Positions 45,001 through 48,000 of a stretch of 64,000 nt of DNA are shown in pieces. The first letter of the stretch is position 1, and every line of letters begins with the position of its first letter. Source of the stretch: Escherichia coli. Its GTDB lineage: Bacteria > Pseudomonadota > Gammaproteobacteria > Enterobacterales > Enterobacteriaceae. Made by a program: the position numbers. The DNA is taken from NCBI RefSeq assembly GCF_030013595.1, contig NZ_CP122768.1; one strand, 5' to 3'.

Positions 45001-48000
45001 CGAATACGGGCAGCGAATACCATCACGCAGCCATCAGGAGATTGCTGGCGTGCTTCCTGTTCGCTGGTGGCCACGATGTGAATCACGCGCGGTTGTGCGG
45101 TGCTCAGGGCGATAAAACGCCAGATAAAATTGTTTTCGCATTTCTGAATAAACAGCGTGTTTTCTTCGCGCCCTTTCCATGTTGCCGAGATATAGCCCAT
45201 GCCATTGAGCATCTCGCAGGCATCAACCAGCGTATCAGCGGCTACGTGTACAGTGTTTTTACCGTCAGCTATGCAATCACGGTGCACCGCCAGGAAGGTG
45301 TATATAAATTTAGGGTGAGTTTGGGTATGCTGTGTTCCAGCCATAATCGTTACCTCATTTAACGGTTTGGTTAGAAGCCCCGTTACTGCTCCAACAGTGC
45401 GGGGCTTCGTCGTTTCAATTGCTGAATTGCATGTATCAGCCCTTGTGGTATTCAGATTACATTTTGGTGAATACCATTTCAAGTCTTTTTTGGTATTCAC
45501 TTTTGTATTACACTGCATCCCGTTATTAATCGGAGGTGCAAACATGTCCACGAGTTCTGTTAACAATAAGTCACAGCAACTGAATGCCAGATTTCCACAT
45601 GAAGTAGTGAGTGGCATTGAGGCATCCCTACAGCCAGGGGAAACTAAAGCGAATTTTATAGTTACGGCTGTACGCGGTGAGATCGCCCGCCGCCAGGCAG
45701 AAGGAAGCGGAGAAAACCCCCTGGTTTCTTCGCTCGATGCGCTGGCGCAGGTGGAAAAAATCGGAGTCAAAGCTGCCGAGGAGATCGGGCAGCTCGTCAC
45801 CGTCGCACGTGAAGAACTCCAGCGCCGCAAGGCCAAAGAATCAGAATAATAACTATCATCGCCGTGGTGTGAGGAACTCCGGCGCATTGCTTTACAGGTA
45901 CACAGAATGACCAACAAAGAATCAACCAAAACACCATCACCAACCCGGAAGAGACGTCGCAAAAATATGACGCACGAGCATGAATCAGACAGATTCGCGC
46001 CGTGTGCGTTTGTCCTTGAGACGTTCCTTAAAGAGTACAGGCGCACAAAATTAGGGCCACATACCTGGAAAACATCGCGACATAGCGATATTAAAGAGCA
46101 GGAATAGCCCACCAGCAAGTCAGCATATTCACCATAATGACCCTCGGTTAAACCTAGAGTCATTGGTGCAAACCTGACACATTGCCCACCAGCCAGCAAA
46201 TCGCTATGATATTTGGGCTTATGTTTAGTGTTTTCCCATTGGCGACCGCCCCCGGTCGCCTTTGTTTTGCCCGTTATCCGGCAATTGTGGCGCTTCGCCA
46301 CACGGTTGATATAATTCCCCTGCACTGATCCATTTTTTTCGCAGCAGGTTAATTGTTCGCAAGGGCGCTCCGGCAACGGGGCGCTTTTTGTTATGTTCAT
46401 CGCGTTACGCCTCACACCATTACGCAGCCGTTCCGCGCGCTTCTTCCTCGCGCTCTTTCAGCCAGGCCAGCACTTCATCTTCATACCAGCCAACACGACG
46501 CAGACCGATTTTGAAGCCTTTCGGGAATTTTCCGGCGTTGATCATGTCCTGTAGCGAACTGTCTGCCTTGATGCGCAGAATATTTTTTACTTCCTGACGG
46601 GTAAGTATTTTTCTGATTGTTTCCACTATGTTTTACCTCGTTAATCCGGCGTATTCCGGTGATAAATACGGTAAAACAGGGCAGGGCGGGAAAAACAGTA
46701 CCCACCGTTTTAAAACGGTACCCACTGTTTTTATCTCATTGATTACGCTTTTCTTTCTGCAAAAAAATAGCGACCGCAAAGGGCCGCTATTGTGATTACC
46801 GTTTCCACTTCTTAGGTCGCCCACCGCATTTAAGGCTGGTGGGCCTCAGCACCTTGTCGATGCTTTCAGCCAGATTTTTCGATGCACCACGCGAGCGCAA
46901 AAAACTGACTACCTCGTGTTTTGTGGGGGCTGTTGATTTGTCTTCCGGATCGTATGTTGACCAGAATTCACGATTTGCCATTAACGCCAGTTGCAGCCCT
47001 TCGCCGTAGGCGGTGGTATTTTGCATAATAGAATTTTCATATACTCCGGCCTTGTCGTTAAATTTGTGGCAATTATACGATGGTTTGGCATGGTTTGCAT
47101 CGCTTTTACTGGCTTTTTGTACAGCTACACGGCACGGATACCCCTTTTACCGCTGGCTATGGTCACTCCGGTAGCTGCAGCCTCCACAAATTCACCCCAC
47201 CAGCGCATAAGCACCACGCGCTTTTCCAGGTAGTTACTTCGGTTATATGCCCGCCTTACCTCGTTCGTGTCCACGTGTGCGAGTGCGGCCTCGATTACGT
47301 CCGGTTCGAATCCTTCCTCGTTCGCTGCTGTGCTGAATATGGCGCGTAATCCGTGAGACACCAGCACACCAGCGTAACCCATCCGGCGTAATGCAGCGTT
47401 AGCGGTCTGGCTGCTCATTGGCAGCATCGGATTTTTAAGGCTGGGAAAAACGTGTTCCCTGTGTGCGCTGATTGGCTTCATGGTTTCCAGTACAGCCATA
47501 GCCTGACCGCAAAGGGGGATCACATGGTCACGGCGCATCTTCATGCGTCCGGCTGGAATCGTCCAGGTTTCGGCATCGAGATCTATTTCTTCCCAGCGTG
47601 CGGCGGCTGCTTCGGCTGGGCGTGCTACGGTCAGCAGTTGCCACTCAATCAGCAATCTGGTTTGCCGTTCTATGCTGGCGACCGATAAATCGTGCATTAG
47701 CTGCGGTAGCTGTTCCGGTCGGATGGTTGGCATGTGCTTTTTGGTGGGTGAGGGGAATGCCTTGCGGACGTTCGCGGCGGTGTTGATGTCAATCAGCCCA
47801 CTGTTGGCGGCAAAATCCATCACTTCATTGATGCGCTGCAAAACGCGTTTCAGAGTTTCCAGGTTGCCGCGTGCTTTAATGGGGGTGAGTATCTCAACAA
47901 AGCGGCGAGCGGTGAGGGTATCTATTGGCGTGTTTCCGATGTACGGGAATACGTATTTTTCCAGGGATCGCCAGATATCCTTAATCGTGTTGTAAGCCAG

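Follow-up and report, generated by a model that had tools for sequence, protein, structure and literature searches.

The window analysed here is a stretch of 64,000 nucleotides (nt) of Escherichia coli DNA (contig NZ_CP122768.1 of assembly GCF_030013595.1), and it carries an element that is, judged by its sequence, a satellite of the P4 or phage-inducible chromosomal island (PICI) type. Between the leftward kil-like gene and the rightward ylcI-like gene of this element lies a gap, nt 45345-45543. The gap is probably the early promoter/operator ("immunity") region of the satellite and the positional equivalent of the PLE-immunity region of P4. The core of the proposal, that it is the operator region of an early promoter under the control of the YlcI-like protein, also seems likely to us. 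In 81 loci from several genera, the half-site sequence changes only with the beta-strand that is predicted to read DNA in this protein, and not with AlpA or the leftward gene. The anatomy of the region, its conservation, the linkage of operator and beta-strand, the strand of a hairpin and the avoidance of stop codons are computed results, from which we infer all binding, transcripts and regulatory effects. An initial annotation had described a segment of about 200 bp between a leftward operon and a rightward open reading frame (ORF). The length is exactly 199 bp, and the GC content is 41% compared with 48% for the window. The segment was also called intergenic, which is right for a gap between two ORFs, yet a stop-free minus-strand frame crosses the entire gap.

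Half-sites in the gap and the protein predicted to read them

Four exact copies of TGGTATTCA were found on the two strands of the window, and three of them are within 54 bp, nt 45446-45499. With three of the four copies inside the gap, the gap sequence is therefore not random. The half-sites of the window (Table 1) have a spacing of 22-23 bp and alternate in orientation. The comparison set comprised 80 IMG/VR loci together with loci from Klebsiella, Serratia, Erwinia, a metagenome, CFT073 and two other E. coli strains. All compared loci display one layout, with half-sites near -98, -75, -53 and -30 from the ylcI ATG, and across types the sequence between and within the half-sites is not alignable.

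In every one of the 13 types, the best minus-strand match to a sigma-70 promoter, designated P_L, is found at one offset (-62 relative to the ylcI ATG). The -35 at this offset is TTGAC(N) in most types. The -10 is usually of the form TAnnnT; its end lies between -87 and -93, and in 10 of the 13 types at -90. The position of P_L given by this comparison therefore has half-sites 1 and 2 bracketing its -10, spacer and start site.

The loci encode 40 distinct YlcI-like proteins. Residues 45-101 of these are nearly invariant, and residues 9-18, the strand predicted to read DNA, fall into discrete types, each of which goes with its own half-site, giving at least nine specificity types. QQLNARFP is found with TGGTATTCA, KQISIRIP with GAATCACA, QLTTVRVP with GAAACACA, QSLTARIP with CTTACA (CTTACAC being common to E. 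coli type B and Klebsiella), QMKNIRFP with a CACACC core, and the strand QALKARVP of EcCICFT073 with GGTGTGGCCCAC. The motif QQxNARxP accompanies GTGAAT in the window and in loci L021, L003 and L166, despite their distant contexts. The 5′ type of the leftward gene is independent of the operator type. So is the AlpA type, and AlpA at 95% identity or more is seen with five operator types. The variable block consists exactly of the operators and the recognition strand between conserved flanks, which at the sequence level is the classic signature of an immunity specificity module. An operator-like CTGAATGCCA, with one mismatch to the half-site, is also present inside ylcI at nt 45580-45589, in the codons of the predicted recognition strand; this copy may be due to chance.

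The plus-strand ORF at 45544-45849 is preceded by a Shine-Dalgarno sequence (SD), GGAGG, at nt 45533-45537. Its product belongs to the YlcI/YnfO family, with residues 9-50 matching NF041551 (DUF3950) at 60.3 bits against a cut-off of 30 (E 1.3e-16), and its homologues carry the YlcI/YnfO label in their source annotations. The family is spread over many Enterobacterales genera. No function for YlcI, YnfO or DUF3950 was found in the searchable literature, and tblastn of the 101-residue protein against 50,697 phage records gave no match. The initial annotation had described this product as basic, which does not hold, as its isoelectric point (pI) is 5.9 with 13 lysines and arginines against 14 acidic residues; the small basic protein is the product of the next ORF, 45907-46107.

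The AlphaFold 2 (AF2) model of the monomer contains helices at residues 19-28 and 35-55 and one long helix at 59-100. Ribbon-helix-helix (RHH) domains fold only as dimers. Residues 1-58 were therefore modelled twice with a Gly-Ser linker between the copies. Each half of this linked dimer displays a strand at residues 10-18 and helices at 19-28 and 35-54, with a predicted local distance difference test score (pLDDT) of about 90 and a predicted template-modelling score (pTM) of 0.68. The top eight Foldseek matches of the linked dimer are F-plasmid TraY, a natural tandem RHH protein (probability 0.99-1.0, E 0.004-0.09). In hhalign the motif Q-x-N-x-R-x-P-x-E-V is in register with the beta-strand and first helix of Arc, weakly (E 0.005, probability 7%), and the alignment with Mnt gave E 0.05 and a probability under 10%. 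A PDB sequence search returned nothing relevant to RHH. The N-terminal domain is predicted from these models to have the RHH (MetJ/Arc/CopG) fold, followed by a long C-terminal helix at residues 59-100. A weak helix-hairpin-helix match to Hef (residues 45-86, E 0.03), the only match in a PDB profile search, was rejected, as the model has one continuous helix there.

Two shorter members of the family were also observed. YlcI of the K-12 prophage DLP12 (locus L165, nt 6251-6445) is 64 residues long with the strand TRNIRFP; its gene adjoins a lambda-type cos and is divergent from nohD. The YlcI family is therefore also represented at the packaging end of lambdoid prophages, the helpers of such satellites. 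The YlcI/YnfO protein of EcCICFT073 (locus L173, nt 30473-30652) has 59 residues and keeps the RHH part and an RRKAKEQE tail; the long C-terminal helix is absent.

The kil-like gene, its antisense strand and the stop-free frame

The minus-strand ORF on the other side of the gap starts with the ATG at nt 45344, and its SD is GAGG at nt 45353-45356. P4 Kil, a protein of 65 residues, matches the same model as this first leftward gene, NF033153 (E 1.6e-21 for P4 Kil), and the two have a common N-terminal motif; the first leftward gene is therefore a kil homologue. In the leftward genes at 44979-45344, 44621-44986, 44428-44628, 44124-44423 and 42712-44127, each start overlaps the preceding stop. 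They therefore form one operon, whose last gene encodes a RepA-type AAA_25 helicase, which bears out the leftward replication operon that the initial annotation had begun at nt 45344. That annotation had missed three features of the region, namely the homology to P4 kil, the plus-strand hairpin with a predicted antisense RNA over the kil ribosome-binding site (RBS), and the stop-free frame between alpA and kil.

The inverted repeat at nt 45374-45408 is more widely conserved than its flanks. Over 15 variants and 13 pairs, 99% of the cells are paired, and three pairs show double compensatory changes. RNAalifold gave the same structure for a set including other genera, with compensatory changes in 7 of the 13 pairs. 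The 25 G.U cells are all plus-strand pairs; read on the minus strand, they would become A.C mismatches. The G.U pattern and the compensatory changes therefore indicate that the structure is selected in a rightward RNA, antisense to the kil leader. At least four unrelated coding contexts have a -10-like box (TATGMT or TATAAT) placed 35-38 nt upstream of a GGTTAGA anchor; the distance of this box to the anchor is fixed, whereas that to the kil start codon varies. The predicted RNA would comprise a first stem-loop (SL1, nt 45339-45372), which contains the anti-start sequence and has the anti-SD in its loop, and a second (SL2) acting as terminator. Folding into two stem-loops is predicted for each of the three unrelated leftward 5′ types; in two of them the anti-SD is in the 5′ loop. 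Thus a plus-strand antisense RNA of about 78 nt probably covers the RBS of kil. A reading of the hairpin as an immunity RNA of the P4 CI/seqA type was dropped, there being no C4 or isrK match here while P4 scores both. A dedicated partnership of the antisense RNA with the FinO-like protein of the element was weakened, the ProQ/FinO gene being absent from many relatives that keep the hairpin.

The stop-free minus-strand frame is in frame with kil. It crosses the gap, the antisense strands of ylcI and orf66, and a 300-bp spacer. Two candidate starts are a GTG at nt 46415, 4 nt after the alpA stop, and an ATG at nt 46400, 15 nt further, with the SD GAGG. Given the kil homology and a frame that begins 4 nt after alpA, kil here lies in an eta-like frame, as in P4-like satellites. 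Shuffling and synonymous-codon simulations put the chance of such an open frame in the window alone at about 1e-6. The frame is stop-free in nearly all of 79 loci, and in EcCICFT073 it is also open, as a 428-codon ORF. The 130-nt operator region is open in 12 of the 13 operator types (each P 0.03-0.06), which gives a combined P of about 1e-17 when the types are treated as independent. The sole exception is the Erwinia locus, which is without alpA on that side.

Outside the overlaps with plus-strand genes, the variable sites of the frame show no three-base periodicity (20/26/20), and ylcI and kil do show it. The frame translation gave no domain match. A long minus-strand ORF encoding a real protein was rejected on these two grounds. 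The missing periodicity therefore suggests that stops are avoided without amino-acid constraint, which fits translation itself as the selected property. Whether the frame has a read-through role is nearly an even question, which we would answer in the negative by a little.

Between orf66 and alpA, two plus-strand units were observed on the opposite strand of this frame. The unit at nt 46182-46268 has a promoter TTGCCC-17-TATGAT and a terminator hairpin at 46241-46260, and that at nt 46307-46393 has a perfect extended -10, TGATATAAT, and a terminator hairpin at 46361-46388. Each unit is conserved as a module whose edge coincides exactly with the terminator, although the right-hand contexts differ. 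No Rfam family was found for the units within 46182-46393, and scans for trans-target duplexes gave only their own perfect antisense strand. They may be small RNAs antisense to the alpA read-through transcript.

Proposed mechanism, alternatives and related systems

A mechanism can be proposed as follows. P_L, with the -35 at 45482-45477 and the -10 at 45459-45454, would drive kil and the replication genes. The YlcI-like protein would bind the 9-bp half-sites through its Arc/Mnt-like RHH N-domain, and dimers are probably bridged by the long C-terminal helix, which would let the protein occupy sites two helical turns apart at the same time. Occupation of sites 1 and 2 would shut P_L, and sites 3 and 4, over a weak ylcI promoter, would provide autoregulation. 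The antisense RNA would block Kil translation from leaky transcripts. Upon helper induction, AlpA would activate its own promoter, and transcripts would enter the stop-free frame, cross the antisense strand of ylcI and orf66 and then the operators, and reach kil in frame and the replication genes. Translation of the frame, as with P4 eta, would shield the transcript from Rho and override or silence the repressor cassette. A wider extension is tentative and rather doubtful: that Gram-negative PICIs, EcCICFT073 included, have an overlooked YlcI/YnfO immunity repressor of the RHH type with at least nine specificities serving as immunity groups, in a three-layer switch with the antisense RNA, overridden by AlpA read-through.

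Several observations weigh against a repressor-operator region of this kind. The fourth half-site is degenerate in the window's type, and a full fourth site near -30 is present in types B, D and E. The orientation of the half-sites differs in some relatives, with direct repeats in L003 and EcCICFT073 and a mixed arrangement in L167. The -10 of P_L is weak in the window, with 3 of 6 consensus bases, and a consensus promoter/terminator scan called no site inside the gap at its threshold. The plus strand gave no positionally consistent best promoter match across the 13 types. The divergent control region of the initial annotation is supported, with repeated half-sites on the core of a positionally conserved leftward promoter; its repressor switch is supported in part. 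The operators adjoin the codons of the beta-strand, and their co-variation could partly reflect linkage in one recombination module. As to the fold, Foldseek of the AF2 monomer against the PDB gave nothing significant, the RHH assignment depends on an artificial linked dimer, and among curated RHH families no Pfam model scored above threshold, PF07704 matching weakly and under its cut-off with a best E of 0.0015. The antisense promoter is weak in the window (TATGCT, with no TGn and a poor -35), and the T tract is modest, giving a poor terminator U tract (GUCGUUUC). Finally, AlpA is required for induction of EcCICFT073 and its overexpression is sufficient (PMC6092414), and a "master" YlcI is therefore not needed to explain induction. 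The YlcI-like protein is a good candidate repressor through the predicted RHH fold and an operator sequence that tracks the predicted recognition strand in at least nine types; the "master" status suggested by the initial annotation is not established, and the AlpA-driven read-through route may bypass the repressor.

Other roles for the protein can be weighed against this repressor reading. The ylcI-orf66 pair could be a toxin-antitoxin-like cassette, an RHH antitoxin with a small basic toxin, in which the repeats autoregulate the cassette only and not the replication operon. Type II systems usually have this order of an RHH gene and then a small basic ORF, 24 of 35 family members match the RHH antitoxin family PF07704 weakly, and sites 3 and 4 are on the ylcI side of the gap. 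However, sites 1 and 2 are on the conserved leftward promoter core and not on the ylcI promoter. Many loci keep ylcI and the operators without orf66, which the NCBI pipeline does not call in L001, and orf66 and the small ORFs match no toxin or defence family, PADLOC included. The 59-residue YlcI of EcCICFT073 also lacks the C-terminal part that an antitoxin would use to neutralise a toxin. Such a cassette appears very unlikely. It is quite unlikely, too, that the YlcI-like protein is an architectural or accessory factor (in TraY-like bending, replication or packaging) or an activator of ylcI and P_L. The sites extend over the -10, spacer and start of a promoter that is conserved in position, the gene is at the head of the replication operon, at least nine types amount to the diversification typical of immunity specificities, and a candidate iteron-type origin is elsewhere, at 42387-42714. 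In favour of this role, the best fold match, TraY, is a relaxosome accessory protein, K-12 YlcI stands beside the cos of a lambdoid prophage outside any immunity region, and half-site orientation is variable among relatives. The promoter overlap and the type diversity fit it less well than they fit a repressor.

The repeats could also be bound by AlpA, by products of the kil operon or by a helper protein, with ylcI incidental or the shadow of a long minus-strand ORF that is the real gene. The minus-strand frame is indeed open and conserved through ylcI, and AlpA is the established regulator of Gram-negative PICIs. This is highly improbable in view of the independent assortment of the AlpA and leftward-gene types with respect to the operator type, and of ylcI itself, which has a good SD, a curated family model covering K-12 YlcI elsewhere, a confident RHH model and variation concentrated at third codon positions; the long ORF has no periodicity outside plus-strand genes and no domain. 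For the hairpin at 45374-45408, a role as a mere terminator or insulator, stopping stray rightward transcription before the operators for example, is unlikely but less so. The weakness of the predicted antisense promoter in the window, the lack of an Rfam family match for the predicted RNA and the restriction of the ProQ/FinO gene, a possible RNA partner, to a subset of relatives would agree with it. Against it, the strand-specific G.U pattern and compensatory changes reveal selection on a plus-strand RNA, the -10-like box keeps its distance in unrelated coding contexts, and each of the three unrelated leftward 5′ types has a predicted 5′ stem-loop. Moreover, any plus-strand RNA ending at the hairpin is necessarily antisense to the kil RBS.

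The proposed repressor switch can be compared with several known systems. In the immI region of P22, the RHH repressors Mnt and Arc act with the divergent promoters P_ant and P_mnt, and the sar antisense RNA covers the RBS of the regulated gene. Mnt, too, oligomerises through a C-terminal helix. The window shares with immI a small RHH repressor and a short RBS-covering antisense RNA (both predicted here), repeated sites over close divergent promoters, and the beta-strand motif Q-x-N-x-R-x-P, which aligns with Arc. Unlike P22, there is no significant sequence homology to Arc or Mnt, the switch would regulate kil and the replication genes instead of an antirepressor, and the read-through frame overlaps the region.

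For kil/eta of P4, work of Forti and colleagues from 1999 is reported to have found that translation of eta prevents termination. PMC10111431 describes P4 eta as coupled to the alpA homologue, with the early promoter inside it and Kil as its in-frame C-terminal part; its translation from the upstream late promoter prevents termination. The window element resembles the P4 arrangement (vis-eta/kil-PLE-CI RNA/seqA-alpha) in a long frame that follows an alpA/vis homologue by a few nt and has kil nested in frame inside it, an internal early promoter, kil as the first translated gene before the replication genes, and the same NCBIfam model. It differs in that P4 immunity works through RNA (the C4-family CI RNA and isrK-like seqA), neither of which was matched in the window element, and in that this element has in the same interval an inverted cassette with the YlcI-like RHH protein, operators and a cis-antisense RNA on the opposite strand.

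The initial annotation had referred to a master repressor encoded by PICIs at this position. This is the case in Gram-positive PICIs, the pathogenicity islands of Staphylococcus aureus (SaPIs), where the master repressor is divergent from the excision/replication operon; in Gram-negative PICIs the global repressor is termed "unclear" and AlpA is a demonstrated activator (PMC6092414). As with Stl/Rpr of SaPIs, the candidate repressor gene is divergent from the operon of the satellite with a control region in between. Stl, however, is a larger helix-turn-helix repressor and co-directional with int, whereas ylcI is divergent from the kil operon and convergent with alpA and int. FinO-domain proteins bind terminator hairpins (PMC9674577; PMC12001967). 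The FinP/FinO system is similar in an antisense RNA of about 79 nt with two stem-loops (predicted here), a terminator hairpin and complementarity to the RBS of the first gene, and the window element has a gene for a ProQ/FinO-family protein (41703-42245). In sequence the predicted RNA is unrelated to FinP, and the FinO-like gene is missing in many hairpin-bearing relatives.

EcCICFT073 has int, alpA, a YlcI/YnfO gene, a 199-bp gap, an Icd-like gene, DUF4222, a primase and PerC in common with the window element, and also the hairpin, a -35 box GTCAAG, repeated half-sites (GGTGTGGCCCAC) and the read-through ORF. Its YlcI lacks the long C-terminal helix, its operators are of another type with two sites as direct repeats, and its replication and packaging modules differ. 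The searchable literature contains no repressor of Gram-negative PICIs and no mention of the ylcI-like gene of EcCICFT073. Switches built from a repressor and its operators are already known, as are phage repressors of the RHH type, antisense RNAs that cover an RBS, and eta/kil of P4. As far as that literature goes, three points appear to be new: that the YlcI/YnfO family is given a role, that Gram-negative PICIs, EcCICFT073 among them, have a candidate immunity repressor, and that a repressor gene lies with its operators antisense inside a frame kept open for read-through. If the proposal is true, it would explain the silence of the toxic kil and the replication genes in these satellites, the multitude of operator types would suggest that competing satellites form immunity groups, and the region would be a compact case of operator, promoter and translated read-through sequence at once. 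It is directly testable through the residues and the bases they read, the transcript ends and a silent stop codon in the frame, and the module is present in the model EcCICFT073.

The satellite and its other features

The coordinates of the features are collected in Table 1.

Table 1. Features of the satellite element and its early region (positions in the window)
Feature	Coordinates (nt)	Strand	Basis or remark
Early promoter/operator region (proposed)	45345-45543	.	gap between start codons of kil-like and ylcI-like genes
Half-site 1, TGGTATTCA	45446-45454	+	covers P_L -10 edge and start site
Half-site 2, inverted copy	45468-45476	-	in P_L spacer, beside -35
Half-site 3, TGGTATTCA(C)	45491-45499	+	upstream of candidate P_R -10
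Half-site 4, degenerate, TGCATCCCG	45514-45522	-	6/9 to TGAATACCA; where other types have a full fourth site
P_L -35, TTGAAA (predicted)	45477-45482	-	positional conservation in 13/13 types
P_L -10, TAATCT (predicted)	45454-45459	-	17-bp spacer; expected start near 45447
Candidate P_R -10, TATTAC / TACACT	45506-45514	+	weakly supported; TATAYT-like box before fourth half-site in other types
YlcI/YnfO-family protein, 101 residues, candidate immunity repressor	45544-45849	+	NF041551; AF2 models; TraY fold matches; type alignment
kil / Icd-like, first leftward gene	44979-45344	-	NF033153, E 5.7e-23
-10-like box TATGCT of predicted antisense RNA	45326-45331	+	inside kil codons 5-7
Predicted cis-antisense RNA, about 78 nt	45339-45416	+	complementary to kil SD and start codon
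Hairpin SL2, then GTCGTTTC	45374-45408	+	plus-strand RNA structure, covariation
Conserved stop-free frame (eta-like)	44979-46457	-	492 codons; in frame with kil
orf66, basic 66-residue ORF	45907-46107	+	phrog_21027, E 7e-31; pI 10.1; downstream of ylcI
Terminator-like hairpin and T tract	46241-46268	+	likely end of ylcI-orf66 unit
alpA (Phage_AlpA/HTH_17)	46420-46626	-	upstream of stop-free frame
Integrase, arm-binding, P4-type	47125-48366	-	co-directional with alpA
RepA-type AAA_25 helicase	42712-44127	-	end of leftward operon
Left attachment (att) repeat	37904-37929	+	26-nt direct repeat; partner 48432-48457
Right att repeat	48432-48457	+	26-nt direct repeat

The element is 10.55 kb long (37904-48457) and lies between its direct repeats in the 3′ end of rclA. 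Gram-negative PICIs, as delimited by Fillol-Salom 2018 and Mageeney 2023, are about 10-15 kb with int leading to alpA, a replication module, a late/accessory zone and att repeats. The element matches this layout in its size, its att repeats, int followed by alpA in the same direction, a RepA helicase with likely iterons, PerC and DUF2213, and the same gene order is found in Gram-negative PICIs (PMC6092414; PMC10111431). Both int and alpA are co-directional with the replication operon, and only the ylcI-orf66 cassette is inverted; orf66 is kept in most, not all, relatives. The gap-region sequence was matched in 980 of 5,426 complete E. coli genomes.

The island cargo includes the Icd-like gene, two phrog_340 ORFs, DUF4222, the helicase, ProQ/FinO, PerC and a DUF2213 protein. 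The ORFs scanned in 39004-47026, which did not cover every small ORF, match only AAA_25, DUF4222, ProQ, PerC, DUF2213, HTH_17 and AlpA, and none is a homologue of psu, sid or delta. An Rfam scan of 38000-49000 at E <= 1 gave chance-level matches only, with neither C4 (RF01695) nor isrK (RF01394); P4 itself, as a positive control, scores both families. The ProQ/FinO-family gene encodes an RNA chaperone (PF04352, E 8e-24) and is present in only a subset of related elements.

Directly downstream of the helicase gene, nt 42387-42714 contain five copies of an 18-nt repeat with the core CTCACTTTTT, and these are likely the iterons of a replication origin. Near the left end of the island, at 38770-39003, three copies of TTGACACTTTTT(CGCG) are found inside longer 39-nt repeats; they may act as promoters or be a site for packaging. 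Two direct repeats of 35 nt, 83% identical to each other, follow the left att on its inner side at 38011-38045 and 38122-38156. At the insertion site, island sequence completes rclA (36615-37862), whose own 3′ fragment (48556-48711), now displaced, remains beyond the integrase. In other strains a closely related element is found at tRNA-Pro beside yejM.

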